A stretch of 64,000 nucleotides of DNA. Origin: a virus. Positions 15,166 through 48,236 of the stretch are shown piece after piece. Numbering within the stretch: position 1 is the stretch's first letter; each line of letters opens with the position of its first letter. The notes under the pieces are model-generated. The model made no database searches and was not told the origin of the DNA. It saw only the letters and a list, made by a program, of their open reading frames with translations. The position numbers were made by a program, and so were the translations under genes. The DNA is taken from IMG/VR virus record IMGVR_UViG_3300023184_000079, positions 17,645-81,644 of that record, one strand, 5' to 3'.

Positions 15166-15801
15166 CTATGGGGTAAAATTAATGCCGCTGTTCCAAATAA
15201 AATGGCTAGCCTTTTCCCAAAGTCGATCCTTTTGCTCCATGGACAGGCTGCCGTATCTCGGGTCATCATACATGTCTTTGACCTGCTTGATTAATTGTGA
15301 GCAATGATTATAAAATTCAATTTGCGCCTGCTTGTCCGGTTCTTGATTTGGCTGTCCCGCCCCCGGAAACTGGATAAGGTCGCCTGCGGTTTTGACCGCT
15401 TCTTTTTTCTTTTTTTTATTCACGGATTCAAGTGATTCATTTTCTAAGAGAATCTTGGCCCAGTCTGGTTGTCCGGGTTTATTTTCGCCCACGGGATAGC
15501 GTGGAAAATACAGATCTGACCCGACCTCGCCGCGCGGTTTTTTCTTTTCTTTTTTCTTACCTGATTGTTTGTCGTCAAATTTGACAGACCACACCTCATG
15601 CGATCCACAATCGGGACAAGTAGGTGGTATATCGAAGACATCATAGCCGCCTCGTTTTCCGCAGCCATAACATTCCATAGTGTTCCACAATTCGGATCGA
15701 AGACCGTCTTCAACTTCGTCCCAACTAAAATTACCTTTCTCGTCAACAGACTTTTTGAACCACTTCCAACGCTCGTTTGCTGTTTCAAATTTAAATGCCA
15801 T
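15166..15801 (-). CDS. Leader-family A protein (MAFKFETANERWKW) with a Zn ribbon
   Basis: Shared leader; CYGCG..CPDCG. Confidence 0.8.
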   Translation of the reverse strand: MAFKFETANERWKWFKKSVDEKGNFSWDEVEDGLRSELWNTMECYGCGKRGGYDVFDIPPTCPDCGSHEVWSVKFDDKQSGKKKEKKKPRGEVGSDLYFPRYPVGENKPGQPDWAKILLENESLESVNKKKKKEAVKTAGDLIQFPGAGQPNQEPDKQAQIEFYNHCSQLIKQVKDMYDDPRYGSLSMEQKDRLWEKASHFIWNSGINFTP

Positions 15802-15805
15802 TGTT

Positions 15806-16315
15806 TCACATTCCTAAATGATCAAAAAACTTTTTTTCTTTGCTCTGTTCTTTGTTCCTAAGATCATGGACTCGCCATCGATGTTTTGATTCGTCGAATT
15901 CCAAGTTGTCAAATCTGGTTTTCCATTGTTCTCCGACGAGGGTTGGGTCCATAAAACCGGAATTTGCATAAGTCTTTTGCATGTCGTCAAAGATATAGTT
16001 CCAGTCTATTTTTCTTTCGTCTATAAATCCAGAGTTGTCATAGAAATCTTGAAGTATTTTATTATTGTATGGGCCTAGCCATTTTCCAATAACATACTCT
16101 GCCAATCTCTGCGGCCCCGCGCCATCCGCCCCCATGCCTTTTCTTACGACACCCCAAGCGTCTTGGATACTGTTGTTGTTGTTGTTATTCATCTCTGTTC
16201 GGACTTGTTGTGTTTCGTAATTTGGAGCATCTTGATACGGAGCGTCTTGATCAAAAAGGCGACCAGAGAGATACCACTTCCAACGCTCGTTCGCTGTTTC
16301 AAATTTAATCGCCAT
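15806..16315 (-). CDS. Leader-family A protein (MAIKFETANERWKW)
   Basis: Start reassigned to ATG 16315 by the shared leader. Confidence 0.8.
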   Translation of the reverse strand: MAIKFETANERWKWYLSGRLFDQDAPYQDAPNYETQQVRTEMNNNNNNSIQDAWGVVRKGMGADGAGPQRLAEYVIGKWLGPYNNKILQDFYDNSGFIDERKIDWNYIFDDMQKTYANSGFMDPTLVGEQWKTRFDNLEFDESKHRWRVHDLRNKEQSKEKKFFDHLGM

Positions 16316-16844
16316 TTTTAAATTCAACCTGAACATTTCTCATCCTGTTAAAGACAACAGTCATATATAGGAAATCATAAACAAGTTTAAAAAAATCATT
16401 TGCATTCATATCATTGATATAAACATCTGGATCAGAGATAACCGCTTGAGCCACCATTTTGATATGTTCGGAAATTTCTAAAAGGGTTTGTTTTGCCTCG
16501 TCGGCCCATTTAGATTCACTCATCGGCCCTAAAAGTACCCAGTCCTTGTCTTCAGGCTCCCATCTCTTGAGCACCTCAACAAGACCAAGCGCAGCATCAT
16601 AAATAGTTTCGGCAGTTTCTGGAACTAAATCAATAGGGTCTCTTCCCTGAGCAAGAAGGGGGGACAGAAATTCATTATTGATATCGGTTAGCAAAGGTTG
16701 AATTCGGACAGCCTGATCAACATACTCTAGATCTTTGTCTACCCGATCCCATGATCCGTCGGTGGCTGGTTCATCCTGCCAATCGGACTGCTTACGATTG
16801 AACCACTTCCAACGCTCGTTTGCTGTTTCAAATTTAAATGCCAT
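16305..16844 (-). CDS. Leader-family A protein (MAFKFETANERWKW)
   Basis: Start reassigned to ATG 16844 by the shared leader. Confidence 0.8.
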   Translation of the reverse strand: MAFKFETANERWKWFNRKQSDWQDEPATDGSWDRVDKDLEYVDQAVRIQPLLTDINNEFLSPLLAQGRDPIDLVPETAETIYDAALGLVEVLKRWEPEDKDWVLLGPMSESKWADEAKQTLLEISEHIKMVAQAVISDPDVYINDMNANDFFKLVYDFLYMTVVFNRMRNVQVEFKNGD

Positions 16845-17382
16845 TGTTCTGTTCTTCCCATCTTCTGTTTTCTTCAATGCGGCCGACAATGGAATCATAA
16901 ATTTCTTGCCAATTCACTTTGGAGTCTTGAATTATGTGATCATTCATATCTGTTGGCTGCGGTTCTCCAAACAATCCATACGCTATGTTTCTCATTCTTT
17001 CAACATATTGCGTGCGAGCCTCGGGATCATTTGGATGACGCTCTTGTGCCCGCGCCATCCAGTCCTCTACGTCTCTCTCTCTCATGGCCGCTACTTCCTC
17101 TTCGTCGGTCCAATTCTGAGCCTCATCCATCAAGTTCTTATTGTAAGGACTTATAATGTTTTGCAGAGCCCAGTCGGATAGTTGCTGAACGGATCCACCG
17201 CGCTCAACGAGTTTGTAAGCATACGAAGACGTTTCTTCTTCGTTGTCAATTATTAAAGCAGTGTTCCAAGTGTCCCAGTTTGTCCAGCCATTATAGTTGT
17301 CCGCAGAAGGATCCATTGGGTCAATGACACTTTGCTTGTACCAGTCCCAACGTTCGTTTGCTGTTTCAAATCTAAATGCCAT
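16834..17382 (-). CDS. Leader-family A protein with a YNGWTNWDTW phage domain
   Basis: Shared leader, then the widespread phage motif YNGWTNxxTW..VNWQEI. Confidence 0.8.
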   Translation of the reverse strand: MAFRFETANERWDWYKQSVIDPMDPSADNYNGWTNWDTWNTALIIDNEEETSSYAYKLVERGGSVQQLSDWALQNIISPYNKNLMDEAQNWTDEEEVAAMRERDVEDWMARAQERHPNDPEARTQYVERMRNIAYGLFGEPQPTDMNDHIIQDSKVNWQEIYDSIVGRIEENRRWEEQNNGI

Positions 17383-17409
17383 TGTAACTATTACCTTGCG
17401 CTTGGGGCA

Positions 17410-17973
17410 CTAAGGAAGCGTCCTTAAAACGCGCGCGATGTCTTCATGCTGACGACCAATCGTCTTAGCAGATTGATTAAACCAATCTTTCAACTGTGCG
17501 ATTGAGTTTATTGCGTCTTCATTTGGAAGCGCCTGCTGTTCTTCAATGGCGAGAACTGCATTGCCGACGAGATAGGACATCTGGCCGATGGCATCAAGAA
17601 TATTCTTTCTAAAGTCTGCCTCTGCCTTATTTGTCGGAATCCAGACATTTATGATTTCCTTGTAGCCGCTTTCAAATATTGCCGATTCGGCCTGCTTCAA
17701 GTAATTCAGATATTTTTCGATATGGCTTCGGATTTCGCCGCCCGTGTAATCGTCCAACAATTCTTCAAAGGCAGCGTCACTATAGTCTTCAAGGGCGTGG
17801 TTGTTCCCTCCCGCTAGGCTCCATGACAAATCGAACAATTGGTCAAGAGCCGCAAGTTTTTCCTCCAGACGAATTCTTTGTTCGCTGGCGTCCGCAGAAG
17901 GATCCATTGGGTCAATGACACTTTGCTTGTACCATTTCCATCGTTCATTTGCTGTTTCAAAACGAAATGCCAT
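17410..17973 (-). CDS. Leader-family A protein (MAFRFETANERWKW)
   Basis: First 28 aa nearly identical to 16834..17382, remainder unrelated. Confidence 0.8.
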   Translation of the reverse strand: MAFRFETANERWKWYKQSVIDPMDPSADASEQRIRLEEKLAALDQLFDLSWSLAGGNNHALEDYSDAAFEELLDDYTGGEIRSHIEKYLNYLKQAESAIFESGYKEIINVWIPTNKAEADFRKNILDAIGQMSYLVGNAVLAIEEQQALPNEDAINSIAQLKDWFNQSAKTIGRQHEDIARVLRTLP

Positions 17974-18063
17974 TGCATCTATTACTATACGCTTAGGCTA
18001 TGAAGAAGGTAGTCATAGCCATTTCCTTCTAATAGTTTTACTAATTATATTTTTGTTTAGACC

Positions 18064-18503: not shown

Positions 18504-18504
18504 T

Positions 18505-21080: not shown

Positions 21081-21536
21081 TTACTCTTTTCCACTTGAAC
21101 CAAATCCTTTCTCTCCCCGATCTGACTCGGAGAGTTCGTTTACTTCATTCAAATACACAATGTAATTTGGAATGAACACAATTTGCGCAATTCGTTCTGC
21201 CGGAAGAATAGAGTAAACGGAATCGCTAAGGTTCTGAAGGATGATCTTTATCTCTCCACGATAGCCCGTATCAATGAGACCGGGAGCATTGAGAACAAAA
21301 ATCTGATCAACCGCCAGACCAGAACGAGACAGGATAGCGGCGTGGTGACTTGTCAGCCCTTGGGACATATCCAGAGCGATGCCTGTGCCGACAAGGGCAT
21401 TCTTCCCCGGAGAGATATCTACTCCTTCATCCGCATAAAGATCAAAGGCTGCATCGGTCTTGTGTGCCTTCTTAGGGGCTACTGCCGTTTTGGTAAGCCG
21501 TCGATAACTTACCGTAGGATAATCAGAAGAAAACAT
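21081..21536 (-). CDS. dut: dUTPase (trimeric)
   Basis: AAFDL, SRSGLA, GLIDTGYRGEI, ERIAQ and RGEKGFGSSG motifs. Confidence 0.95.
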   Translation of the reverse strand: MFSSDYPTVSYRRLTKTAVAPKKAHKTDAAFDLYADEGVDISPGKNALVGTGIALDMSQGLTSHHAAILSRSGLAVDQIFVLNAPGLIDTGYRGEIKIILQNLSDSVYSILPAERIAQIVFIPNYIVYLNEVNELSESDRGEKGFGSSGKE

Positions 21537-21947
21537 TTTGACATCTACTTCCTCTTTGTTACCAGAATAAGTTTTGGATACATTGTATTGTCCAGAGAGG
21601 GTATAGACTTTACTTCCATTACTCTGTTTTTGTGTTTATTGTTGTAGTAGGCTACTTGACTGTAAAGATTATCAAGTTTCTTACTGAACTTATTACAACA
21701 CTTCTTAGTAAGAAGATTTCTTTTTTTTGCGTTAGCCATTTTGGATTTCCAATACTTTTATAGAACAATTAAACTTTTCAAAATTATTAATCATATTCAT
21801 CAAATCTGAATAACAAGAATTTTTATCAATAGTTATTGTATATTCTTCAGATGAATAAAAGAACCAAAGGGTTTTCCAATTCTTCTTTGGTGCAGTAGTT
21901 ATCTTCAGTTGATAACTCAAACTTTCACCTTTTCCCTTCTATCAAAA

Positions 21948-35846: not shown

Positions 35847-35852
35847 GTCTGT

Positions 35853-35906
35853 AGACTATCTACTCTCTGTGAGAATGTCAAGGTGATTCATGTTAGGATT
35901 GTGTTT
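35853..35906 (-). promoter_or_regulatory. Early promoter repeat, copy 10
   Basis: AAACACAATCCTAAC..TTGACA-17-TAGTCT-6-ATG. Confidence 0.8.
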
Positions 35907-35949
35907 ACTCTGCTAGGGCGGCGGAGCCGCCCCGCGCGGGGGGTCAGGG

Positions 35950-36318
35950 TCAGGCGACCCTTGCGACCGCCCAGACGTACTCCGCAGCCTCGTCTCGCGT
36001 CCAGCCCCGAGCGGCGTACTCCGGGGCGAAGCGGTCGTCGTCGTCTAGCCCGTCGATCTGCCACAGGCTGTCCGCCAGAGTCAGCCCCGACAAGCCAGCC
36101 GTGTCCTCGTCGTGACAGACCGCGAGGGTGGCGGAGTCGTACCAGCCGTTTTGCGACACGCCGGGGCAACCGGACAGCGCCTGCAGGGCAGAGATGAGGC
36201 TGCCGCCGAACAGGAAGTCTGCGACCTCCTGAGCCGTGACGGCAAAGCCGGTGATCTTAGACTGACAGGCGGTGCCGACGTAGTGGGCCACGTCGGCAGG
36301 CTGCATATACTTGCTCAT
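35950..36318 (-). CDS. Hypothetical early protein
   Basis: AAGGAG SD; overlaps the upstream stop. Confidence 0.65.
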   Translation of the reverse strand: MSKYMQPADVAHYVGTACQSKITGFAVTAQEVADFLFGGSLISALQALSGCPGVSQNGWYDSATLAVCHDEDTAGLSGLTLADSLWQIDGLDDDDRFAPEYAARGWTRDEAAEYVWAVARVA

Positions 36319-36638
36319 GCTGTCTGCTCCTTGGTTGCGTAAGCGATTGCGGCAAGTGCCGCACGCTTGGTATCAAACACATCGCTTAGTCCGTAGCCGA
36401 CTGCTCGGTCGCCGGTCGTGGTGTCCAAGATGTACCAGTCAAAACGCTCCACGTCGTGCCACGAGTGACAGCCTCGTCCGCTGATCTTGCCTGCGACGAT
36501 CCGGTTGCCGTCAATGTTGGTTAGCCAGCGGAATCGGCGCTCGTTGCGATGTAGTGTCTCGCACTTCTCGTGTTCGCATGGGGTAGACCACTCGTTGCGA
36601 TCAGGGACGTATCGGTTTGTGGTGGTGGTTATGCTCAT
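36315..36638 (-). CDS. Hypothetical early protein
   Basis: GGAGGT SD; ATGA overlap. Confidence 0.65.
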   Translation of the reverse strand: MSITTTTNRYVPDRNEWSTPCEHEKCETLHRNERRFRWLTNIDGNRIVAGKISGRGCHSWHDVERFDWYILDTTTGDRAVGYGLSDVFDTKRAALAAIAYATKEQTA

Positions 36639-36922
36639 GCCGTCACCTCCACCGCAACCCAGATGCCGTCGGAGCGGTAGGTGAAGGTCTGCCCGTCGTG
36701 GAAGGCGGCGATGCGGCTGCGAATGCCGCGCAGGCGCTTCACTTCGGCGGCGACGTAGGCGCGAGGGGTCAGGTAGCGGTAGCCGTCGAAGATCTCGTTG
36801 TCGTCGCGGTGGCGGAAGGCGTAGGCAATATGAGCCTCGCTGATCTCCGCGTACATGGCGTCAGTCTCCGCGTCCGCCGCGTTGTAGGTGATGGTGTTGT
36901 TGTCGTTCATGCGATTGCTCAT
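36635..36922 (-). CDS. Hypothetical early protein (leaderless)
   Basis: ATG 6 nt after the -10 box of copy 11. Confidence 0.65.
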   Translation of the reverse strand: MSNRMNDNNTITYNAADAETDAMYAEISEAHIAYAFRHRDDNEIFDGYRYLTPRAYVAAEVKRLRGIRSRIAAFHDGQTFTYRSDGIWVAVEVTA

Positions 36923-36928
36923 GTCTAA

Positions 36929-36971
36929 AGACTACTACCTTTCGGGTCGGATGTCAAGTTAAGATTGTGTT
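36929..36971 (-). promoter_or_regulatory. Early promoter repeat, copy 11
   Basis: AACACAATCTTAAC-TTGACA-TCCGACCCGAAAGGTAG-TAGTCT-6-ATG. Confidence 0.85.
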
Positions 36972-37224
36972 GGGCGGTAGTGATCGTCTTGGCACTCTTC
37001 GCACCACTGCTCCGGTGCTGCCATCCACGAGACGGCATTGGCCTGCGTCTCAAACTGCATGATCGTGCTGTGCTGCTCGCAGATCAGAGTCCACGGCAGG
37101 TCGGGGTCGCAAGCCTGTTCGGCGCTGCTGACCAGCACGACGAGCGTGCCCGTGCTGCGCGCGAAAGAGGCGCGGCGGAAGCCGCAGTAGGTGCGAGCCT
37201 CCGCAATCGCCTGCTGACGGGCAG

Positions 37225-37536
37225 TCACGCCCCCACCTCCCAAGCACCGTCGCGGCTGGCATTGGCGACGACGTACAGGATCGCGATGACCTCCGCCGGA
37301 GTCATGTCGGGAACGTACGCGGAGATCACATCGGCGCACCATTCGTTGCCGTCGTTGTCGTTGCCCTCGCCCCAGCCGAAGAGGGCGGCGCGGGACACGA
37401 GGCTACGGAACCGCATCGGCATGCGGTAGACGTAGCCGTCAATCTTGTTGCCAGACGGCTGCCCTTCGACCATGCGGTCGGGGTCGCAGTCAATCAGGTG
37501 GTCAGGGTTCACGGTGTCGTACATGTCTTTGTTCAT
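37225..37536 (-). CDS. Hypothetical early protein (leaderless)
   Basis: ATG 6 nt after the -10 box of copy 12. Confidence 0.65.
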   Translation of the reverse strand: MNKDMYDTVNPDHLIDCDPDRMVEGQPSGNKIDGYVYRMPMRFRSLVSRAALFGWGEGNDNDGNEWCADVISAYVPDMTPAEVIAILYVVANASRDGAWEVGA

Positions 37537-37542
37537 GTCTGT

Positions 37543-37596
37543 AGACTACTACCTTTCGAGTCAGATGTCAAGGGGATTTGTGTTATTTTTGTGTTT
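37543..37596 (-). promoter_or_regulatory. Early promoter repeat, copy 12
   Basis: TTGACA-17-TAGTCT-6-ATG with the AACACAAATCCCC upstream block. Confidence 0.85.
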
Positions 37597-37908
37597 ACTC
37601 TACTTGGGCGGCGGAGCCGCCCCGCGCGCGGGGTCAGGCCCTAGAGATGTCGAACGCTTGGCTCGGCGTGGTTGATCGTCACGAGATCCGTACCCGTCAC
37701 GATATGCACGGAGTTGAACCTGCCGCGAGCGTTGATTTTGATATGGTTGTTTTGCTCGCGCTCGCGGTAGTAGAAACTGCGGCCATCCTGCCCCATGTAC
37801 TGCCACGGCAGATGCGCTTTGGCAGGCGCGCGTGTGAGGTAGGCGGTGAGGGGCGCGAAGTCGTGCTGCGGGTCGTAGTTCATGGTGTCCTTCGGGTCGT
37901 ATTCCATT

Positions 37909-38253
37909 TTACTGGCAGTCGCCGCAGAGGGTCTGGGCGCCAGTCCACGCGAGGTTGTCGGTGTCGCCACAGTCGTCGCAGCAGCCGCTGCGAGGAGCCA
38001 TCAGGCCAGCCGAAGGAGCAGCCGGAGTCGTCGTCCACCCATCGGTGAAGTCGAAGATGTAGGCGACCTTGCCGTTACCGAGGTCGCGCTGGTCGAACAC
38101 GTCGCCTAGCGTCACCTGCTTGAGGCCGCCGCTCTTGAGGTGGACGGTGACGTGGCTGCCAACGCCGAAGCCGTGGCCCTGACCATTCTGGACGCGGACG
38201 GCCCAGCCGTCTCCGAATCGGGTAAACGTGCCCTGCGGGTGCTTGGTGCTCAT
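37909..38253 (-). CDS. Hypothetical early protein with a C-terminal CxxC..CxxC (leaderless)
   Basis: ATG 6 nt after the -10 box of copy 13. Confidence 0.65.
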   Translation of the reverse strand: MSTKHPQGTFTRFGDGWAVRVQNGQGHGFGVGSHVTVHLKSGGLKQVTLGDVFDQRDLGNGKVAYIFDFTDGWTTTPAAPSAGLMAPRSGCCDDCGDTDNLAWTGAQTLCGDCQ

Positions 38254-38259
38254 ATTTAG

Positions 38260-38306
38260 AGACTACTACCTTCCGGGTCGGATGTCAAGTTAGGATTGTG
38301 TTTAGT
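38260..38306 (-). promoter_or_regulatory. Early promoter repeat, copy 13
   Basis: ACTAAACACAATCCTAAC-TTGACA-17-TAGTCT-6-ATG. Confidence 0.85.
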
Positions 38307-38497
38307 CACAGCAGCGAAGCGGTGATTCTCGCAAGCGGCGATGAACCGCTCGCGGGAGAAATGAACGTTGTCACGGGCGTAGGTGGCCGCGATTTCGTCG
38401 CGCACCGTCTCCCATTCGGACCGGCTGCTGATGGACCAGCGCAGGCACCGGACCGTCTCTGCCATGTCCTCGTAATGTCGCCGGGATAGCGACGACA

Positions 38498-38857
38498 TTA
38501 GAGGCGCTCCAGCAGCAGGCGGACCTGCGGGTCAACAGCCACAGCGTTGAGCGCAATCCAGTCGCTGTCAGACTCCGACAGATCCAGCGTGTAGTCGGAG
38601 GCGATGGCGATGCCGCCGAGGTCCGGGTGCTGCTCAACCGTCACAAAGCGAACGCGGTAGGTGCTGTGGTCAAGCCCGTGGGAGTCGCAGCCGCGACCGA
38701 CCAACGTCTCCACAGCCGACCGCAGGGCGGCAAACGTGGTGCCGCGATTGGCGACCTCAGCAATGGCCGTCTGCATACCACGGCTCATCACCTTGGCGGC
38801 TTCAGCGTCCTCTAGGGCTTTGTCGCGCTTGCTCTGGCTCTGATGATTGGCGCTCAC
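38498..38857 (-). CDS. Hypothetical early protein
   Basis: ORF within a tightly packed operon. Confidence 0.55.
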   Translation of the reverse strand: MSANHQSQSKRDKALEDAEAAKVMSRGMQTAIAEVANRGTTFAALRSAVETLVGRGCDSHGLDHSTYRVRFVTVEQHPDLGGIAIASDYTLDLSESDSDWIALNAVAVDPQVRLLLERL

Positions 38858-38859
38858 GC

Positions 38860-39162
38860 CTACACCCCCGTTCCGAAATCGACGTTCTCAAAGCAGGAGG
38901 CGCGGTAGGCGACTTCGCCGATCTGGTCGCAGTAGACGCCGAAGACCTCGCCGTGAATGAAGGTCTGGGTGTCGCGCTTGAAGGTGCGGCGGACGTTGTA
39001 AAGGTCGTTTTCGATGGTGATCTCAACGCGGTAGCCCTTCCCGGCAGGGAGAATGAACGTGTCGTCTTGGACGAACCAACGTCCGCCGCTGATGGCGAGA
39101 AGGTTGCTCCATCCGATCTGGCGCTCAATCGTGCAGGCTTCTGGCTTCGTCAAAATGCTCAT
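38860..39162 (-). CDS. Hypothetical early protein
   Basis: GGAGGT SD, ATGA overlap; QIGWSNLLAISGGR..VYCDQIGEV. Confidence 0.65.
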   Translation of the reverse strand: MSILTKPEACTIERQIGWSNLLAISGGRWFVQDDTFILPAGKGYRVEITIENDLYNVRRTFKRDTQTFIHGEVFGVYCDQIGEVAYRASCFENVDFGTGV

Positions 39163-39485
39163 GCCGTCACCTCCTCGCTGCACCACTGGCAGACGCACTG
39201 GATGTCGGCAGGCACGGTCTGGTCAAGGCGCGCGACAACGGTGGCGGGATCAATGCCGATGCCGCGCAGCCAGTGCGCCTGATCGTCTCGCTTGAAGGCG
39301 AGGCGCGCGGCCAAGTTGATCTCGCGCGTCAGCGCGCCCGAATGCGTGGTGCCGGTCAGCGTGGCGATCTGGCGCTTGCAGCGGACGAGCCTGCTCACGA
39401 TGTCGTGGTAGGCAACAACGGCCTGCGCGACGTGGAGGAGATTCTCCGGGGCGATGGTGATGTTCGTGCTCTCGGTCTGGTTCAT
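39159..39485 (-). CDS. Hypothetical early protein (leaderless)
   Basis: ATG 6 nt after TATACT of copy 14. Confidence 0.6.
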   Translation of the reverse strand: MNQTESTNITIAPENLLHVAQAVVAYHDIVSRLVRCKRQIATLTGTTHSGALTREINLAARLAFKRDDQAHWLRGIGIDPATVVARLDQTVPADIQCVCQWCSEEVTA

Positions 39486-39491
39486 AGGCAC

Positions 39492-39520
39492 AGTATACAC
39501 AACTACGGTCAGATGTCAAG
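39492..39520 (-). promoter_or_regulatory. Early promoter repeat, copy 14
   Basis: TTGACA-16-TATACT-6-ATG. Confidence 0.8.
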
Positions 39521-40378
39521 CCCCATAGGGCAGATTTTTTCTACATATTTTTCAGAGGAACGTACGCACACGCATATAGCATGGGGGCGGGGGGTCTGTC
39601 AAGTACCAACTGTCAATGCCGCCTAGCATACCCTGAACGACATGTCAAGGACTCTAATGCCGAACTGCGGCTGTTCGGGAGAGGGGGGCCGGGTGGGTCC
39701 GGGTCCCATCAAAGACTCAGGACGGACGGTTCTGGCGACATAGCATATATACACTTACTATGTGGCACTATGGCTGGCTGTAAGGTAGATAGGTGATGGC
39801 CGCTCCTAGCATACAGCATAGGCAATGTCAAGTAAGTGAATGAGTAAGTCTTACTTGACAAACAGGCAGGATTGTGCTATGATATGGTGGGGGGAGCCAC
39901 GGGATGGGCATGACGAGCGGGTAAGCGGGTTCGTTTGGGGTAAAGAGGCGCGCACTTCAGGACAGTTAATAGTAAATATTTGGCTTACCTAAGCGAAATA
40001 ACAGATGTCAAGTATGGCAAGTTCATTAGGGGGCAAACTCGCTCTTTACTGTCCAAGTGGTACAAGTTAGTACAGAGTAATCCGCAGTAGGGTGAACAGG
40101 TTCAAGGGCAAAGAAAAACCCCCTGAAAGGTGCGAAGCGGGTGGCTGCTGATGTGCTGGAGGTTCTTCTTCTCCTATACTGGAGAGGTATTACTTCTATT
40201 GGTCTGAGGGGGAGGGTTTGGGTTATGGCCGCCTTCGGATCCCCCTATGGTTCTTCGCCGCCTTGTATGGGCAGATCAGTACACGGGAAGCGAATGTGCT
40301 GAATTGGCGGCATTCTTCACCCCTCAAAGGGCAGTGCCCGTTACGGTCGGTTAACCCATACTGATCTGCTGTTATTGA

Positions 40379-40915
40379 CTATAGCAGAGTGGGAGGATCC
40401 CAGAATTCAAGCCATTGATCCCGATCTACATCGGTGCCAGTAAATATATCTAGGGGCGAAAATTTTGCATCAAGAAACCTATGATAGTATTCTGGTTTGA
40501 TATCTGAATTATGTCTTCCTGTAAGGTTTGCCGAACTTAGATCCAATTCAGTATCCAGTGTTGCACGAGGAATATTATTCGGATCTCTGAGCGAATATAT
40601 TGCCATGTTTGGCAATGCTGAGTCTGCCGCCTCGCCAGCATATTCTTCCCATCTATCAGATATAAAATCTTGATCCGACCATTTATCGCGCTCAATGCCT
40701 TCCCATTCGCATGGAGGAGACAAACAATTGCCTACCAGTTCACCTTCACGAACAAGGTCTTTCCATGTTTGCGGTTGTCTAATAGTCCATCCATCGGGGA
40801 ATGTATAGATAATTTTGCTAGTATCTTCTGGGAGTTGGGCCGCTCTATTCAGAAGTTGAGTGGTTGTTTCTGCCGCTTGATGCAGCATCTCCGCTCTTGT
40901 TTCAATACGCTTCAT
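40379..40915 (-). CDS. Leader-family B protein (MKRIETRAEML), PcfJ-like domain
   Basis: Leader; IIYTFPDGWTI..EGELVGNCL..IYSLRDPNNIPRATL..GRHN. Confidence 0.75.
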   Translation of the reverse strand: MKRIETRAEMLHQAAETTTQLLNRAAQLPEDTSKIIYTFPDGWTIRQPQTWKDLVREGELVGNCLSPPCEWEGIERDKWSDQDFISDRWEEYAGEAADSALPNMAIYSLRDPNNIPRATLDTELDLSSANLTGRHNSDIKPEYYHRFLDAKFSPLDIFTGTDVDRDQWLEFWDPPTLL

Positions 40916-40955
40916 TATCTATTATCTTGCCGCCATCTTATATATAATAGATACC

Positions 40956-41528
40956 ATGTGGCGTATATCAACTAGAAAAGAAATGCTATTTAAGACGGCG
41001 GAAGAAGAGAGGGTAGAAGTTAACCCAAACACAAGAAATCAGTCTCAATGGTATTTTAATATCTATGAGATTAGTGAGGTTTATGGCGGTTCAGAAGAGG
41101 GTGGTTGGTATTATACTGCTGGCGAGCCTGTTGAAAGCATAAAACTTAAAAATCCTTTTCCGGAGAATGCGTACATTTCCCCACAAGAAGATGGCGGTAA
41201 CGAGGCATATTTTGAAAAAGAAAATACAGAAGTAGACGATTTTCTTAAGTTTTTTGAAAGCAAAGGGTATACTTTTAATGGCAAAAACAGATTCAAAACA
41301 AGCCCCCAACAAGCCGAACAAGAGGATTTCGCTAACGCGCAAAGAAATTATGGTCCCGATGAGGCTGCTGAAGTTTATTTAGAGGGTTCTAAAGCCATGG
41401 AAGAGTTCGCTCAAGGGCATCCGGAATTGTTGGACAAGTGGTACATGGATCAATACACCGATTATTCTTATCGGATTGAAGACCACCCCGGCAGATCATT
41501 CCCCCAACAGGGGCAATACTACCAATAA
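40956..41528 (+). CDS. Leader-family B protein (MWRISTRKEML)
   Basis: Leader; YGGSEEGGWYY phage motif. Confidence 0.75.
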   Translation: MWRISTRKEMLFKTAEEERVEVNPNTRNQSQWYFNIYEISEVYGGSEEGGWYYTAGEPVESIKLKNPFPENAYISPQEDGGNEAYFEKENTEVDDFLKFFESKGYTFNGKNRFKTSPQQAEQEDFANAQRNYGPDEAAEVYLEGSKAMEEFAQGHPELLDKWYMDQYTDYSYRIEDHPGRSFPQQGQYYQ

Positions 41529-41531
41529 CCT

Positions 41532-41627
41532 ATGTGGCGCATATCTACTAGACGAGAGATGTTATCTGATTTTGATGACGGTAAAAATCCGTTTGACCTC
41601 CGCTCACGTTGCGGACCTCAAAACTAA
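41532..41627 (+). pseudogene. 31-aa leader-only ORF (MWRISTRREMLSDFDDG...), probably a truncated family B gene
   Basis: Manual translation; the ORF ends inside a perfect 15-bp inverted repeat. Confidence 0.55.
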
Positions 41628-42148
41628 TACAATACTCATAAAAAGTGAAGATAACGTATTAGTTTTGAGGAGAGTCTTTGACGTTGTTCACGTATAGAGT
41701 GTATTGCGTGTGATCTGGTGCGACGCTCATGTGTCCATTACGAGACTCTCGTATGTCCAATAGTGTGGTTGTTATGTCGTCTTTGACGTTGTAGATAAGC
41801 CCGGTGTGTATCTACATGTGTGTGCGGAACCGTATCAGTTTGATACGCTATAGCACATGGCGTGTTGTGTACTACTGCAGGTGTACGCCATCATGTATCC
41901 TCTGCAGGCGATTACCTGCAAATGGCTTGTATCTCTCTAGGTGGTACTTTCCAAGTGTAGGATCGGTTCTAGGCATTACCGCTTGTTGTGTCTAGGCATT
42001 CGTGAAGATTGGGTCTGAGAGGTTCTCTTTGTCTGCGAAATATCGTGCATACGGACGATATTTCGTGCATACTTGGGTCGTGAATCTGGCTCGCATAAAG
42101 ATGCGAGTTAAAGGCGTTTAACCCTGCGTAATCGCTTATTTATGCGAG

Positions 42149-42793
42149 TTAACGTAGCAAAGATGCTAGTTTATCGTATTGGAAATAAGACTCATTTAAT
42201 GATATCGCCTCTGGTGAAATCGGCCCTTTGTATGAAAAAGTTTTTAAATTGAATATTGATTCTTGAACAAATTTCGGCTGATCTATTATGTGAGATTGCG
42301 ACTCAGCGTACTCGCCAAGTGATTGCTGCCCCGGCTCAAGTTTGTGATGAATATTAATTAGATTTTTGGGATGAAGTCTAAAGTGTTCAGGTAAGGAATC
42401 AATACCCTCAATCTCCATATTTGTATCTAGGGCATCTTCATCAAAATCTACTTTTGATGGATCCAGTTGTCTTGCGTCTATTTTGAATTGACAAAACGTT
42501 TTACTGTCAGTTCTTAGATAAACATGATTTGCTCTTGGTTCCCCAACTGTTCTATCGTAGACACTTTTACCAAGAACGTCCCATGGTATTAGACCGTTTT
42601 GCAATATGCTTTGAATAGTTTTAATTCCCTCTTCATCAATTCTTGCAGACATATTTTGATGATATACAAAAGGATATGTCTGAATGAACGTATTCCACCA
42701 ACGCTGATCAACAGCCATGCTTAAAAGCGTAAACCTGTGGCCGCCCTGTGAATAGCCATAGATCATCTCTTTTCTTGTTTCAATACGTTTCAC
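42149..42793 (-). CDS. Leader-family B protein, ADP-ribosyltransferase-like fold
   Basis: MKRIETRKEMI; VYH..SILQNGLIPWD..HVYL; paralog of the C-terminal domain of 44296..45711. Confidence 0.65.
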   Translation of the reverse strand: MKRIETRKEMIYGYSQGGHRFTLLSMAVDQRWWNTFIQTYPFVYHQNMSARIDEEGIKTIQSILQNGLIPWDVLGKSVYDRTVGEPRANHVYLRTDSKTFCQFKIDARQLDPSKVDFDEDALDTNMEIEGIDSLPEHFRLHPKNLINIHHKLEPGQQSLGEYAESQSHIIDQPKFVQESIFNLKTFSYKGPISPEAISLNESYFQYDKLASLLR

Positions 42794-43599
42794 TATTGAA
42801 ATCCCATTTCAAATGATCCCGGCTCTGAGCCCATCTCTTCATGAAGCGGATTCATTGTTCTTTGGCGTTCTGTGGCCACCCATATAGCGGCTTGTGTATC
42901 GCGAGGAGATTGGCCGTATTCCTTCGCAATTCTCCGAATAGCGTTTTGAATTGCTCTTCTTGCTGGATTTCCCACACTTCGCAAAGAATCAAATCCTGCT
43001 GCTCTTGCAATAATGACATCTACGGCAATTGCATCAGGATCGCCAGTCATGGCTTTAAAGAATTCAGTGACCTTGGGTCCGGTAACATACTGTTCAAAAT
43101 TTGATTCGTCTGCTATGAGAACATTGAAAGCGGCTCTAAGGTTTGATGAATTCTTAAGTTTTATTTCATCAAACGGAAATGTCGGACCGACTGGGTGAGT
43201 ATCCATAGGACCCCTCCCCCATGGACCGGCCGACCATTCGCCTTGTTCATTTATTTCAGCCACAGGATTCGTAACGAAGCCTGCTCCATGTTTTAAAACG
43301 TAAGAGATTATCTCTTTTGCTTTTCTAACATTAATTGCCCATTCTACTTGTGGACTGGTGACTGCGATGACAGCGGCCACTCTTTCGGGAGATACTGCGC
43401 CATTGAATTCGTCACTTATATTTTGACAAAGGTTGAAAGCATTTGGGTACCAGTTAACCCCTTCGGAAAAAGCGCGTTCTTTTCCATAAATATTAAGAAT
43501 TTTTCTAAACCGTCTGGAATAGAGATTTTCCTGACTGTTATCTTTAATACTGGCCGCAGCATTAAAGATCATTTGATCTCTGGTTTCAAGACGTTTCAT
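42793..43599 (-). CDS. Leader-family B protein, putative HhH-GPD-like DNA glycosylase
   Basis: MKRLETRDQMI; GVNWY..AAVIAVTSPQVEWAINV..GPKVTEF..IAVDV..QAAIWV. Confidence 0.6.
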   Translation of the reverse strand: MKRLETRDQMIFNAAASIKDNSQENLYSRRFRKILNIYGKERAFSEGVNWYPNAFNLCQNISDEFNGAVSPERVAAVIAVTSPQVEWAINVRKAKEIISYVLKHGAGFVTNPVAEINEQGEWSAGPWGRGPMDTHPVGPTFPFDEIKLKNSSNLRAAFNVLIADESNFEQYVTGPKVTEFFKAMTGDPDAIAVDVIIARAAGFDSLRSVGNPARRAIQNAIRRIAKEYGQSPRDTQAAIWVATERQRTMNPLHEEMGSEPGSFEMGFQ

Positions 43600-43601
43600 A
43601 T

Positions 43602-44294
43602 CTATCCTATACCAAGTGTTTGTGTTGCTTGTTGACCGACTTCAGACCAATAGTCCTCACTGGGAAATCTTCCGGGATTGTTGGGGTCACCATTCTGTAT
43701 CAACTTCATGTTGTTTGTTGATAGTTCCTGTATATCGGGAGGCAAAGAATTGAAATACTCTTCTGTTTGCGGTTCAATAAATTGTATGCCGCTTTCAACC
43801 AATTTCTGAGCCATCGCGTTTGCATCAATTTCTTGCTCTCTTCTCTGGTGTATCTTTTGTGTTTCCAACCAATCAGTGGTTCGTTCACGAGGCGCATTTT
43901 CAAATTCTCTTTCTTCCATATATTGGTACAGATGCTGTAACTCATGGATAAAAATGTAGTTTGCATTTTTTGGAGTTTGATATTGAAAAAGATATATTCT
44001 ATACTCTTTGCCGCGCTGCGGCCTCCTCCACTGAACGCTGACGTTCTTGTAGTTTCCAATTCTAATTATCAAAGGAGCATCTAATCCAAAAACTGGATCA
44101 AATATTAACTTATTGACAAGATCCTCATTGACTTTAAAATACGGCAAATACTCACCAACAACATCAACTTCGACTTTGACAGGAGAATTGTGCCGTGCGG
44201 GACCTTGTCGGTTTTTGATTGCTTCTGCAAATGGTTGCCAATCATTGGCTGCTGGTACAGAAAGCATTTGCATTCTTGTTTCTATGCGCTTCAT
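43602..44294 (-). CDS. Leader-family B protein, HExxH metallopeptidase-like
   Basis: Start reassigned to MKRIETRMQML (44294); FIHELQHLYQ..EIDAN. Confidence 0.7.
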   Translation of the reverse strand: MKRIETRMQMLSVPAANDWQPFAEAIKNRQGPARHNSPVKVEVDVVGEYLPYFKVNEDLVNKLIFDPVFGLDAPLIIRIGNYKNVSVQWRRPQRGKEYRIYLFQYQTPKNANYIFIHELQHLYQYMEEREFENAPRERTTDWLETQKIHQRREQEIDANAMAQKLVESGIQFIEPQTEEYFNSLPPDIQELSTNNMKLIQNGDPNNPGRFPSEDYWSEVGQQATQTLGIG

Positions 44295-44295
44295 A

Positions 44296-45711
44296 CTACC
44301 GCGCAGGCCCGAGAAAAAGTTTATCCAGTTCATCACCCGTGAGTGGCCGACCCCATGCGTCTAAGACGACGGGCAGCACTATATCCGCTATCGCTTCTAA
44401 AGGCACAGTTCCCCAATATGCGAGAGTCTTGTTATGTTGAAGAGATTTCTGAGTAACATCTGGGTCATCAAGAATCTCTGCATTTTCCTCTGCCCAAGCC
44501 CCAAGACTTTCTGGGCCACTTTCCGGCCACCATTCTGGATGGCTTGTAGGATAGGACCGAATTCCATCAAACATCTCATTATTTGGATTTTTAAGATATT
44601 CGTCTTCAACATAGTCTTCATCTGCTGAGAATCTTGATGCTTCTAGTTTGCGTAGGTCTATAGTGAGTCTTACGCCGTCTCCATGAAAGTGGGGACTTAT
44701 ATCCTTAACATGCATATAAACAAATCCTGCTCTAGGGATAACGTGTGCGAGGCCGTCGTCAATATACTTTTCTTCTACTCTTGAATTTGGAATTTCATCC
44801 CATGGCATTAGGCCGTTTTTGAGGATTCCCTCAAGGCTTTCATAACTTGTGTCATGGTAGGCATAGGGGCCGTTTTGTTCAATCCATTCTTGTAAATCTT
44901 CTGGCCGCATAGCCATTGCCTTTTTGGAGAACATTGGCTGATATTTGTAGCGGGGAGTGCCATCTTCATATTGAGTGAATTCGTCTTCGTAATCATCGTA
45001 GGCAATAGTGTTGACGCTGTTTGGCGAGGGCTCAGTTCCTGCTGGGTAATATGAGGCGATACTTATATTTTGAGCCGGGATTACACCAAGATATACGAAA
45101 GCGCCATTAGAACGTAATTCTTTCCACAACTCGGTCAAATCACTTCTTTGTTGACGGCTCATTTTCATAATTTCATCGAAAAGAATACCGCCCGATGTGT
45201 CATTTTCCATCCAGTAGAAAAAACTTTCGGCATTTTGTGGTGCTTCTGGGGCTTTGTTTCCATTTATTCCCCATTCAACAAAGAATTCGGGGAATCCTGC
45301 TTCTCTGATATCAACGTATGCCTCTTCCCAACCTTCTACTGTGCCATCATATGCATCGCTTACACGAACAGCAAGAAATTGATTTAATTCCTCTGGATCA
45401 GGAATAATCTTTTGAAGATCAAGTCCAGTAATTTTAAGAATGACTGGATCTCCGCCCGGATATCCCTCGCTCTTAGCAAGAGAACTTTCGTTGAAGGACC
45501 ATTCTTGAGCCGTGGCTATTGTAGAAGCAAGATAAACTCCATTCTCAGCCACACTGTGCCTTGGGAAATTCTTATTTGCAATACCTCTACCAGTCGGCGT
45601 CAAGCCATGATCCCGAATAGACTGGAGGTTGAGTTCGCTAGTGACGTGATACCATACGTTTGTATCGTATGGCATAGAGAGCATCTGTCGTCTTGTTTCT
45701 ATGCGTTTCAT
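44296..45711 (-). CDS. Leader-family B protein with two tandem ADP-ribosyltransferase-like domains
   Basis: MKRIETRRQML; WYHVTS..SIRDHGL..GVYLAS and AYHDTS..GILKNGL..FVYM (Tpt1/PARP-type H-x-T/S pattern). Confidence 0.7.
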   Translation of the reverse strand: MKRIETRRQMLSMPYDTNVWYHVTSELNLQSIRDHGLTPTGRGIANKNFPRHSVAENGVYLASTIATAQEWSFNESSLAKSEGYPGGDPVILKITGLDLQKIIPDPEELNQFLAVRVSDAYDGTVEGWEEAYVDIREAGFPEFFVEWGINGNKAPEAPQNAESFFYWMENDTSGGILFDEIMKMSRQQRSDLTELWKELRSNGAFVYLGVIPAQNISIASYYPAGTEPSPNSVNTIAYDDYEDEFTQYEDGTPRYKYQPMFSKKAMAMRPEDLQEWIEQNGPYAYHDTSYESLEGILKNGLMPWDEIPNSRVEEKYIDDGLAHVIPRAGFVYMHVKDISPHFHGDGVRLTIDLRKLEASRFSADEDYVEDEYLKNPNNEMFDGIRSYPTSHPEWWPESGPESLGAWAEENAEILDDPDVTQKSLQHNKTLAYWGTVPLEAIADIVLPVVLDAWGRPLTGDELDKLFLGPAR

Positions 45712-45717
45712 TATCTA

Positions 45718-46170
45718 TTATTGTCTAGTCGGCGCAGGATAAGTTGCAAAACCTATCTGACTGGGATACAGATACGATGGCAGGTAATTATGCTCATCGG
45801 TAAGGAGTTCTGGGTCAATCATTTGGCGGCTTTTCAGGCCTTTTCTTCTGCCCCGCATTACTTGAACTGGCACAAGTTGATTGTCTTCTGCCGCCATCAA
45901 GCGGTGATTGCCTTCTGATACATGAGCCTGACCTGTTAAGTCATTGTAATCAACAATGATTGCATTATCATACTGCTGGCCGCGAAGTTCTTCAACTTTG
46001 TCCCAATCAGCGATATCATTGCCTTCCATACCACGAAGATCACCGGCTCTGACGTATTCCACATTAGGATAGCCGGGTAATGTGACTGGGTGTTTTGCTC
46101 TTTCTTCGTTAGGAACTTTATTCCAAAGCCATGAGAGCATTTGCCGTCTTGTTTCTACACGTTTTGCCAT
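45718..46170 (-). CDS. Leader-family B protein, ParB/Srx-like domain
   Basis: MAKRVETRRQML; IIVDY..VSEGNHRLMAA..VPVQV. Confidence 0.7.
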   Translation of the reverse strand: MAKRVETRRQMLSWLWNKVPNEERAKHPVTLPGYPNVEYVRAGDLRGMEGNDIADWDKVEELRGQQYDNAIIVDYNDLTGQAHVSEGNHRLMAAEDNQLVPVQVMRGRRKGLKSRQMIDPELLTDEHNYLPSYLYPSQIGFATYPAPTRQ

Positions 46171-46319
46171 CGTACACCTTATGTCGTAGATATGGATCGA
46201 ATGCGTGGTCTTCTTATTCGCTCATATACGCGAGTTAAAGCAGTATAACCTAGAATAATCGCAAGTTTATGCGAATAACGACATACCCAATTTTAAACAT
46301 CAATTATGTCGATTTTGGA

Positions 46320-46346
46320 ATGAACATTATCTCTTATCGGGATGAG
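46320..46346. repeat. 27-bp direct repeat, left copy
   Basis: ATGAACATTATCTCTTATCGGGATGAG; matches 48240..48266 with one mismatch. Confidence 0.9.
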
Positions 46347-46388
46347 AGTTTCTATTATTTTGCCGTTATCTCAGATATAATAGATATA

Positions 46389-48236
46389 ATGGCGTTCCGC
46401 ATAGAGACTCGTCAAGAGATGTTGTCCGGTTTTCGTTATGCCGCCATCATTAAAGAGCAAAAACAGTTTGGATACTTCCTTGGCTCTTGGGTTTTTTCTG
46501 ATGTAGATGATGCCACCAAAGCAGCGAATACCCGCCAACAGATTCTTAATACGAAAAATGTAAAAGAAAACGAAGAAACAAGATACGTTGTTGAACAAGT
46601 ATTGACTTCGCTTGATGACTCCGCTTGGCGCTGGTTTGAATATGCCACAAAGTGGACACTGCATTACACCAAGCAAGTCGCTGCTGAAGGGCTGGTTCCT
46701 GAGGAGTATAAGACAAGACTCAACGGTCTAGTTGAGAACCTCATCACTCAAGTCAATCAAGGCTCTGCTAATCACACTCGGATGCAGTCTCCAGAACAAT
46801 ATTCTCAATGGACTCCAAAACAATTAGAAGAGTGGAACAAAGAGAACAATCAAGGGGATAGGCTTCAAGGATCAAAGTTTTATAAGAACAACGTTATTTA
46901 CACGTTTCCAGATGGCTCGACTATGGTTCGACTTGAGAACGAAAAAGACTACGAGATGGTTGGAGAGAAACTCTTTAACTGCGTAAGACACGAGCAACCA
47001 AATGGATGGAAGAACCATCCGGGAATGATCGCTCTTGTTGATCCAGAAGGAAATCCAAAAGCGGTTGCTAGGTTTGGTGGAGATGGACAAAGGATAATAA
47101 GTCCCGGCGAACCACAGTACATGAAGATTTGCTATGAGTTCCAATCTCAAGAGAAAGGTCATCCGGTAATAGCATACAACTACGGAGAATACCTGTTTGA
47201 GTTTCTTGAAAAAACGACTCCTGAGGACTTAGGATTCGAAGGAGAAGCATGGGAAAACGAATCCAAAGTTCAACCACCACATGAAATTGTTAAAAGATAT
47301 AAACAAGGAGAGAGGGATTTCCAAAGTATGGACCTGAAGGGCGCGGACCTGCGTGGCGCGAACCTGTCTCGCGCGGTCCTGCGTGGCGCGAACCTGCAGG
47401 ACGCGAAACTGCGTGGCGCGAACCTGTATCGCGCGGACCTGTCTGACGCGGACCTGAAGGGCGCGAACGCTGGCGGCGCGGACATGAAGCGCGCGAACCT
47501 GAATGGCGCGAACCTGATTGGCGCGCTCCTGTCTCGCGCGGACCTAAATAGCGCGGACCTGAAGGGCGCGGACCTGTCTGGCGCGCGCCTGTTCAAAACG
47601 GACCTGTATGGCGCGGACCTGTATGGCGCGAACCTGTCTGGCGCGGATCTGACGGAAGCGGACATGAATGGCGCGGACCTGTCTGGCTCGGACCTGTCTG
47701 GCGCGAATCTGACTGGCACGGACCTGCGTGGCGCGATCCTGCGTGGCGCGAACCTGTCTGGCGCGTTCCTGTCTCGCGCGGATCTGATTGACGCGATCCT
47801 GTCTGGCGCGAACCTGTCTCTCGCGGACCTAAATCACGCGATCCTGCGTGGCGCGATCCTGCGTGGCGCGAATCTGACTGGCACGGACCTGTATCGCGCG
47901 GACCTGTATGGCGCGAACGTGACTGACGCGAACCTGAAGGGCGCGAACCTAAATAGCGCGATCCTGACTGGCGCGAACCTGTCTGGCGTAGACCTGTCTG
48001 GCGTAGACCTGCGTGGCGCGAAACTGATTAGCGCGAACCTGTCTGGCTCGGACCTGTCTGGCGCGGACCTGAAGGGCGCGGACCTGTCTGGCGCGGATCT
48101 GACGGGTGCGAACCTGACGGGTGCGAACCTGACGGGTGCGAATCTGTATCACGCGAACCTGTCTGACGCGGACCTGTCTGGCGCGAATCTAGAGGGCGCG
48201 AACATGACTGGCGTAATAGACAATCAAAGTTATTAG
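46389..48236 (+). CDS. Leader protein (MAFRIETRQEML) with a PcfJ-like domain and long pentapeptide repeat
   Basis: Start reassigned to 46389 by the leader and the upstream TAATAG; VIYTFPDG..VGEKLFNCV; about 55-60 A(D/N)Lxx repeats. Confidence 0.85.
   Translation: MAFRIETRQEMLSGFRYAAIIKEQKQFGYFLGSWVFSDVDDATKAANTRQQILNTKNVKENEETRYVVEQVLTSLDDSAWRWFEYATKWTLHYTKQVAAEGLVPEEYKTRLNGLVENLITQVNQGSANHTRMQSPEQYSQWTPKQLEEWNKENNQGDRLQGSKFYKNNVIYTFPDGSTMVRLENEKDYEMVGEKLFNCVRHEQPNGWKNHPGMIALVDPEGNPKAVARFGGDGQRIISPGEPQYMKICYEFQSQEKGHPVIAYNYGEYLFEFLEKTTPEDLGFEGEAWENESKVQPPHEIVKRYKQGERDFQSMDLKGADLRGANLSRAVLRGANLQDAKLRGANLYRADLSDADLKGANAGGADMKRANLNGANLIGALLSRADLNSADLKGADLSGARLFKTDLYGADLYGANLSGADLTEADMNGADLSGSDLSGANLTGTDLRGAILRGANLSGAFLSRADLIDAILSGANLSLADLNHAILRGAILRGANLTGTDLYRADLYGANVTDANLKGANLNSAILTGANLSGVDLSGVDLRGAKLISANLSGSDLSGADLKGADLSGADLTGANLTGANLTGANLYHANLSDADLSGANLEGANMTGVIDNQSY
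47330..48210 (+). repeat. 15-bp tandem repeat array encoding the pentapeptide repeats
   Basis: GCGCG[GA]ACCTGxxxG units, GC-rich compared with the flanks. Confidence 0.95.

Follow-up and report, generated by a model that had tools for sequence, protein, structure and literature searches.

A short N-terminal leader shared by mostly unrelated proteins of a freshwater myovirus: a portable address tag, tentatively for the assembling head

We found that in a 64,000-nucleotide (nt) stretch of virus DNA (hereafter the window; bases 17645-81644 of the 81,644-base virus record IMGVR_UViG_3300023184_000079) the same short leader peptide opens a large set of proteins whose bodies are mostly unrelated. 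Judged from sequence comparison, purifying selection acts on the peptide itself, and the leader looks like a portable N-terminal address tag confined to one lineage; the best-fitting reading, which we favour tentatively and by analogy, is that the tag docks its bearers to the assembling prohead, a form of capsid targeting like that of the phage T4 capsid-targeting sequence (CTS). A first-pass annotation of the window had named 14 open reading frames (ORFs) as leader-bearing, and we observe the motif directly after the start codon in all 14, at the coordinates given there. Five A-form genes (A1 to A5), all on the minus strand with starts at 15801, 16315, 16844, 17382 and 17973, begin MA[FI][KR]FETANERW[KD]W. 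Nine B-form ORFs (B1 to B9), with starts at 40915 (minus), 40956 (plus), 41532 (plus), 42793 (minus), 43599 (minus), 44294 (minus), 45711 (minus), 46170 (minus) and 46389 (plus), begin M(A)[KWF]R[ILV][ES]TRx[EQ]M[LI]. The start positions are right, but the 42793 gene uses GTG as its start codon and the 41532 ORF is just 31 codons long. A six-frame scan of the contig found two extra copies a short way upstream of the window, at genome positions 11950 (minus; MAFRIETAAERLEWY) and 11385 (minus; GTG start; AFRIETRVEMLSSF; U2 below), which follow the major capsid gene as its nearest two downstream neighbours. In total the contig holds 16 leader copies, each directly after the start codon (16/16). 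A regular expression for Met plus the leader core, which leaves out the two GTG-start copies, matched 14 times in the six-frame translation of the contig, and in 200 mononucleotide shuffles the same expression matched 0.025 times on average and at most once.

When the 16 leaders of this contig were aligned with 10 from relatives, the two forms proved to be linked, as had been claimed: the 26 sequences make up one family, in which four intermediate copies join A and B. The gradation runs from MAFRFETANERW through MAFRIETAAERLEWY, MAFRIETRVEMLSSF, MAFRIETRQEMLSGF and MAKRVETRRQMLSW to MKRIETRxQMLS. The family consensus is M-(A/P)-[FKWR]-[KR]-[FILV]-[ES]-T-[AR]-x-[EQ]-[RM]-[WLI], with Thr invariant across the 26 leaders and the Glu before it nearly so, and B leaders measure 12 residues, A leaders about 18. 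Codon use in the B form is varied, with six codons for the Leu after [EQ]M, CGT, CGC and AGA for Arg, and three codons for Thr. We calculated pooled Nei-Gojobori proportions of synonymous (pS) and nonsynonymous (pN) differences over nine core codons, which gave pS 0.76 and pN 0.24 for the 13 B copies and pS 0.42 and pN 0.035 for the 13 A copies, with pS 0.77-0.83 and pN 0.56-0.71 for unrelated codons just downstream of the leader. Because the B synonymous sites have diverged like unrelated sequence, yet the amino acids are retained, it is the peptide that is conserved; the earlier claim, drawn from synonymous codons, that selection acts on the peptide and not on a DNA site is borne out by the B-form pS of 0.76 against its pN of 0.24. 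Codon-position-independent nucleotide conservation, as expected of a DNA or RNA site, was found in neither the A nor the B form. From the same comparison the A copies appear to be younger or partly homogenised, with selection running in the same direction as in B. In AlphaFold models made from the leader alignments, residues 1-7 of the A form are extended and a helix starts at residue 8 (predicted local distance difference test score, pLDDT, of about 82 over residues 1-20); the B-form helix begins at residue 7 (pLDDT 83 over residues 1-10). As models of an isolated peptide, these weakly suggest that a short extended segment (M-x-[KR]-hydrophobic-E) runs up to a Thr, with a helix behind it. Throughout the 26-leader alignment charged residues alternate with single hydrophobic ones and no hydrophobic stretch is present (judged by eye); since the leader lacks a hydrophobic core, a Sec or Tat signal is not indicated, in agreement with the first-pass annotation. 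An arginine-rich RNA-binding motif was also considered and dropped, the net charge of the leader being only about +1 to +2.

Upon removal of the leader, 77 entries, some of them present both as a window-derived and as a database copy, fell into 33 single-linkage groups (blastp, E < 1e-3), 17 of which consist only of new database proteins. The claim that the leader is portable is thereby upheld: it stands on at least 33 unrelated body groups, and it is retained in P0052, an orthologue of B5 with a domain of about 190 residues inserted between the leader and its DUF7178 body, as well as in the relative L100, where half of A1 follows it. That the bodies are unrelated holds for most of them in an all-against-all blastp comparison of 26 bodies and fails for three sets: 46389 with genome 11385 and 40915, 42793 with 45711, and 15801 with two relatives. 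The products of 17382 and 17973 are alike over their 28 N-terminal residues and diverge from there on. Members of the largest body group are linked through common pieces, a sign of domain shuffling behind a constant head. Above the Pfam cut-offs we find pentapeptide repeats (PF00805, E 1.2e-99), DUF7178 (E 8.2e-24) and DUF7249 (E 1.6e-6); the pentapeptide-repeat label given earlier therefore stands, and the pentapeptide-repeat cargo could be a DNA mimic. Three further labels are weak or leads only. The ParB-like match of B8 is to phrog_723 (E 0.0073), the HExxH protein B6 matches the metallopeptidase-like family DUF6782 below the cut-off (E 0.015), and B7, labelled ADP-ribosyltransferase-like (ART-like), matches DUF7002 below the cut-off (E 0.0082) and has language-model neighbours of the DarT, Arr and exotoxin-A type at 0.87-0.90. 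Two labels fell: no analysis supports a glycosylase-like body, and Pfam at E ≤ 10 gave no PcfJ match for 40915, 46389 or genome 11385, the only such match lying in the neighbouring 1544-amino-acid (aa) gene (E 0.009). Most A-type carriers measure 83-217 aa, and many have Pro/Asp/Gly-rich stretches right behind the leader.

We searched a profile of the 26 leaders (30 columns) against 1,835,955,588 protein cluster representatives (E ≤ 0.001). The first-pass annotation had proposed a search of this kind, expecting matches only at the N-termini of diverse cargo, and of the 40 proteins matched all 40 carry the motif N-terminally. The match starts at residue 1 in 31 proteins and at residue 4-41 in nine; the offset matches are read as overcalled upstream starts because each has a Met at precisely the first motif position. 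Some 12 of the 40 come from this contig or from relatives whose leaders had gone into the profile, and 28 are new. A word-based search with 11 B-type N-termini yielded six more B-type carriers (P0045 and P0047-P0051) as well as P0052 with its inserted domain. Among 185,579 prokaryote genomes the degenerate DNA pattern of the A motif had no match, and the seven matches of the B pattern were discarded as unrelated chance places in which the motif is not continued; in viral contigs the B-type DNA pattern had no match. A tblastn search with the A leader alone (23 aa) against 50,697 cultured-phage records at E ≤ 10 returned one match, in a Xanthomonas phage at E = 9, and none in a T-even phage. In metagenome contigs the A-type pattern occurred in 12 stretches, four of which hold real N-terminal leaders (L097, L100, L101, which belongs to the G002 contig, and L105). 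Seven others are internal or not at a start, apparently by chance, and L098 has no in-frame FETANERW. The relatives that we scanned comprise 80 loci fetched by their capsid protein, with flanks of ±10 kb, plus other loci (91 sources, 1.19 Mb). Among these, the motif is present only in the closest, with capsid proteins 85-87% identical, and it was not found within the ±10 kb flanks of loci with capsid identity of 77% or less; a hidden Markov model (HMM) scan of the 1.19 Mb found no member beyond the training set, the other strong matches being chance stretches. Per contig, we count 16 copies in this phage (81.6 kb), one in G002 (76.0 kb), two in G003 (42.8 kb) and none in G001 (71.5 kb). By these sequence searches the leader is confined to freshwater myoviruses of one narrow clade, whose heads are of the Bxz1 type.

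Genes on the contig specify a major head protein (phrog_2522, E 2e-92), a cement-type decoration protein, a tail sheath, a portal (phrog_2833, E 1.2e-159) and a helicase, together with an 844-aa protein in which a head maturation protease domain (phrog_18299, E 1.7e-22) is fused to a long acidic scaffold-like tail. This head module, with its protease-scaffold fusion, belongs to the Bxz1 type. Its capsid protein shows 50-53% identity to the counterparts in cluster C mycobacteriophages (Bxz1), Gordonia phages and Rhodococcus phage E3, and every one of the 227 records matched by the capsid protein lies below 60% identity. The 844-aa protein had no match in Pfam, and phmmer with its residues 1-270 against the sequences of the Protein Data Bank gave nothing at E ≤ 1. 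At its C-terminus (L001:13765-16296 and 27 relatives) we observe a conserved D-S/A-A-L-F-M/S end that persists down to about 35% identity, a candidate capsid-binding tail on the strength of this conservation. CheckV completeness estimates for three relatives put 71.5 kb at 45% and 76.0 kb at 48%; since these figures imply a genome of about 160 kb, the contig is roughly half a genome. DNA of the phage is present in lake and freshwater metagenomes of four studies. Three leader proteins of the window (P0041, P0043 and P0044) are also recorded on a 135,188-base contig, and a more complete genome of the phage therefore exists in public assemblies.

Leader genes sit at three sites, which are the slot behind the capsid gene, the A array and the B island. 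The first of these, bounded by the capsid gene and the conserved gene that comes next, holds two leader genes here, two in G003, one in G002 and two in L100, and none in G001 and L003; here it is preceded by a terminator-like hairpin and a TAATAAG box. The site of the A array is upstream of the 1544-aa gene and on the structural block's tail-fibre side, with L097 arranged alike, and the array is absent from G001, G002 and G003, in which the locus measures about 2 kb versus 7.6 kb. The B island adjoins a four-gene block with small membrane proteins (a lysis-like neighbourhood) about 12 kb from the portal gene, and L105, which is syntenic with it, carries both A and B leaders. We favour docking to the prohead because of this tie to the head module, the recurrent slot at the capsid gene, the late-type neighbourhoods, the tag-linker-cargo layout and the enzyme cargo. 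Under this proposal the tag would dock its bearer on a component of the assembling prohead, and the cargo, comprising ART-like enzymes, the pentapeptide-repeat protein and many small acidic proteins, would then be packaged and later delivered with the DNA.

Several results weigh against this proposal. T4- or phiKZ-type head proteases cleave after Glu, and no conserved cleavage site follows the tag in both forms of the leader alignments; cleavage after the Glu itself was dropped as a candidate, since 4 of the 13 B copies have Q there and the residues ahead of it differ between the forms. Kinship of the leader with the N-terminus of the protease-scaffold protein, suggested by an M(A)F start and an E near position 10 in both, was likewise rejected, the HMM scoring at most 1.8 bits on 28 such N-termini. 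There is no leader gene in the 71.5 kb of G001, which span the whole structural half, and the tag system is therefore dispensable for assembly. The leader genes in the capsid slot are not simply co-transcribed with the capsid gene, since they follow a hairpin and have their own TAATAG/TAATAAG box. At least 16 cargo species of up to 615 aa are far above the T4 load. No cultured phage credibly carries the A leader (tblastn, 50,697 records). Finally, the cargo is acidic: 47 of 51 carriers have an isoelectric point below 6 (median 4.7), and on the contig 11 of 14 leader ORFs are acidic versus 35 of 75 other ORFs of at least 100 aa (Mann-Whitney p 0.008), in contrast to the T4 internal proteins, which contact DNA via lysines (PMC3012670). 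Co-folding of the leader alignment with the capsid protein, the protease domain (1-260) and the scaffold part (560-844) scored 0.00, was run with no controls and speaks neither for nor against binding.

An alternative that we consider unlikely, although a serious one, is that the tag is read by a partner outside the virion, such as a chaperone, a modifying enzyme, a regulator or a protease for which it would be a degradation or timing signal, and that the tagged proteins act in the producing cell. The strict N-terminal position and the selection on the peptide would suit any recognition tag, the distribution is that of an accessory trait (16, 1, 2 and 0 copies in the four long contigs), and neither a cleavage site nor a receptor was found. 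However, no candidate partner gene was found to co-vary with the tag, as the proteins of G000 that are matched in G002 and G003 and not in G001 amount to a 64-aa ORF and parts of leader genes only, and such a partner would leave the recurrent slot after the capsid gene without obvious reason. It is improbable that the tag is instead an external docking peptide by which interchangeable proteins are plugged on the tail, baseplate, neck or capsid surface. Conserved N-terminal anchors do plug tail fibres and spikes onto virions, and the A array, itself on the tail-fibre side, stands immediately ahead of a gene with a conserved module of about 100 residues and swapped bodies; the leader-borne bodies, however, are unlike receptor-binding or structural proteins (ART-like, pentapeptide, weakly ParB-like, or small, acidic and Pro/Asp-rich), and no fibre, spike or collagen-like body is present among the 33 groups (judged by reading the sequences).

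Some leader genes also share a DNA element. Upon examining start regions, we observed TAATAG within 15 nt of the start in 6 of the 16 leader genes and in 1 of 75 other ORFs of at least 100 aa (Fisher p 7.6e-5), the one being the 1544-aa gene. The boxes lie at window positions 15136-15141, 17388-17393, 17979-17984, 40919-40924, 40945-40950, 45715-45720 and 46378-46383, 2-7 nt before the starts. The hexamer is not over-represented overall (41 copies versus about 40 expected), and further copies are present at window 56621-56626 and 53 nt before a conserved 166-aa gene upstream of the window. The divergent 40-bp intergenic region between B1 and B2 (40916-40955), which holds inverted TAATAG(AT) boxes ahead of both genes, has a near copy ahead of B9 (about 46340-46388), and similar boxes precede leader genes in G002, L100 and L105. 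TAATAG may be the -10 element of one promoter class, in that the box has or abuts a TAAT able to close a -10 hexamer, and leaderless transcripts are possible. In a related 8372-base contig, which comes from a different study, pieces of B9, B7, B6 and B5 are present with their order changed, and the alignment joints fall 7-30 nt inside the leader-coding 5' ends, although the short sides are 85% alike and uncertain. In a related strain (run X5, about 90% identity) compared with window 40300-48300, the gene order of the B island differs, and 584 extra letters, matching P0052, stand right after the leader of the DUF7178 gene. By these sequence comparisons the leader genes also behave as exchangeable cassettes, and this recombination at the leaders is better seen as a consequence, because sequence is shared there. 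That the shared 5' end is mainly an expression or recombination cassette, with TAATAG as a -10-like element that yields leaderless or nearly leaderless mRNAs and is copied along with the first codons whenever a new gene is captured, and with the peptide incidental or needed for translation initiation only, is very improbable: the excess and recurrence of the box, the rearranged island with its joints (with the caution noted) and the partial DNA identity of the A copies (pS 0.42) speak for it, but 10 of the 16 leader genes lack the box, the peptide is kept over at least 33 body groups and many samples with orthologues holding the tag within the allowed variation, and the B synonymous sites are as diverged as unrelated sequence (pS 0.76 versus 0.77-0.79) with the amino acids kept, a saturation that contradicts a cassette-only origin.

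Returning to the prohead, an extended form of that proposal is that one N-terminal code of 12-18 residues loads a large, fast-exchanged library of at least 33 families for co-injection, the 5' end of the tag together with the TAATAG box being the joint at which cargo is captured; we regard this as possible, though we lean against it. Packaging, processing and injection are proven for T4, whose cargo includes the ADP-ribosyltransferase Alt, a likeness to the ART-like cargo here (a lead only). In both phages an extreme-N-terminal peptide is common to otherwise unrelated proteins of one lineage. The two differ in that the peptides have no sequence relation (tblastn with the A leader only, no T-even match), and the present system, known from genes alone, has no recognisable cleavage site, mostly acidic cargo, a Bxz1-type head and a larger repertoire (16 per half genome). 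In the T4 internal proteins IPI, IPII and IPIII, a short CTS at the extreme N-terminus is described as the sole feature common to a diverse and fast-evolving accessory set (PMC3012670). In phage P1, the N-terminal 30 residues of DarB suffice to send a reporter into the capsid, and Dar loading is stepwise and needs other Dar proteins (PMC9024508). As here, an N-terminal segment stands on an accessory protein of a myovirus, and that of P1 directs capsid entry and carries a reporter; the strict consensus in all carriers sets the present leader apart. If docking to the prohead holds, the leader would by analogy resemble the T4 CTS and the P1 DarB signal in manner without being a member by sequence, and would differ in tag, head type, cargo number and acidity.

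Two further systems invite comparison. The payload signal of extracellular contractile injection systems is a disordered region of about 50 residues, and Jiang et al. (2022) reportedly found that an N-terminal non-Sec tag on unrelated effectors directs their loading into particles of the Photorhabdus virulence cassette type. Here, too, a non-Sec N-terminal tag stands on unrelated proteins whose genes lie beside a contractile-tail set, but the element is a whole phage that encodes capsid, head protease, portal and sheath, and the tag has 12-18 residues, follows a strict consensus and was not found in the bacterial genomes searched (185,579). The cargo-loading peptides of encapsulins are short, are joined by a flexible linker to unrelated cargo and dock inside an HK97-fold shell. 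They share with the leader the tag-linker-body layout, seen here in the Pro/Asp/Gly-rich stretch behind many A leaders; they are usually C-terminal, whereas the tag here is N-terminal and its binding to the capsid only a proposal. In T4 and P1, counter-defence or takeover proteins enter the cell together with the DNA by virtue of a short N-terminal address, and loading into the head, if true, would extend this principle to a distant phage lineage with a larger and more diverse cargo set. It would also allow candidate injected effectors, mostly without a known family, to be recognised in metagenomes by a simple rule on sequence, and a library of at least 33 families would be the largest natural capsid-cargo system known and would come with a ready-made tag for protein delivery. 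Should the tag be read by another partner, it would still be an undescribed recognition code that spans dozens of protein families and is confined to phages. In either case the family is easy to track with a profile whose matches among 1.84 billion proteins are all N-terminal.

Within the A array, all on the minus strand, A1 (15166-15801, 211 aa) opens with MAFKFETANERWKWF, followed by a CxxC...CxxC zinc-ribbon-like segment, and its C-terminal half is common to a small leader protein of L100, where it stands directly after the leader. A2 (15806-16315, 169 aa) opens with MAIKFETANERWKWY; neither A1 nor A2 has a Pfam or PHROG match. A3 (16305-16844, 179 aa) has the same opening as A1, MAFKFETANERWKWF, and a homologue in L097. 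A4 (16834-17382, 182 aa; MAFRFETANERWDWY) carries the DUF7249 body, its TAATAG box ending 5 nt before the ATG, and A5 (17410-17973, 187 aa; MAFRFETANERWKWY) likewise has a TAATAG box ahead of its ATG. The 1544-aa gene (10499-15133, minus) has no leader, carries a TAATAG box and encodes a C-terminal CxxCxGxG zinc-finger array. The first 100 or so residues of its product are conserved in relatives (33-45% identity; 69% in L097), and in G001 (42345-42668), G002 (55590-55862) and G003 (21433-21702) the same head fronts proteins of about 365-376 aa with an HD-like motif (HDxGK). Here the body behind it is giant, with the weak PcfJ-like match already given (E 0.009) and the zinc-finger array at the C-terminus; as its sequences suggest, the family is a second case of a constant head with variable bodies. 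The DnaJ-type array was considered as a general receptor or partner of the tag and rejected, since the tag-bearing G002 and G003 have a protein of about 370 aa without it.

In the B island, B1 (40379-40915, minus, 178 aa; MKRIETRAEML) shares a body domain with B9 and U2, and B2 (40956-41528, plus, 190 aa; MWRISTRKEML) has weak PHROG matches of unknown function. The 31-codon ORF B3 (41532-41627, plus; MWRISTRREML...) may be a remnant. B4 (42149-42793, minus, 214 aa, GTG start; (M)KRIETRKEMI) has a body related to the second half of B7. B5 (42793-43599, minus, 268 aa; MKRLETRDQMI) bears the DUF7178 body and B6 (43602-44294, minus, 230 aa; MKRIETRMQML) the HExxH motif with its weak metallopeptidase-like match. 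They are followed by B7 (44296-45711, minus, 471 aa; MKRIETRRQML), the ART-like lead, and by B8 (45718-46170, minus, 150 aa; MAKRVETRRQML), the weak ParB-like match. B9 (46389-48236, plus, 615 aa; MAFRIETRQEML) is an A/B intermediate in which an N-terminal domain shared with B1 and U2 precedes a long pentapeptide-repeat region.

Leader-like traces are seen in three further proteins. In a 1055-aa ORF (window 49713-52880, minus), GWRIQTNPDF comes after an internal Met at residue 61 and makes up a degenerate leader-like start, and the C-terminal 100 or so residues of this ORF are 45% identical to a small ORF of L105 (L105:3314-3655). The latter begins GKRLATRQEML without an ATG, possibly from a TTG start. 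P0022 (367 aa) carries a full A leader at residue 1 and, mid-protein, a second body with a leader reduced to ...RWGDYKKSAEQ, and its sequence looks like a fusion of two leader proteins. Between the A array and the B island, window 32001-40000 has a G+C content of 60-62%, with 37-45% in its flanks.

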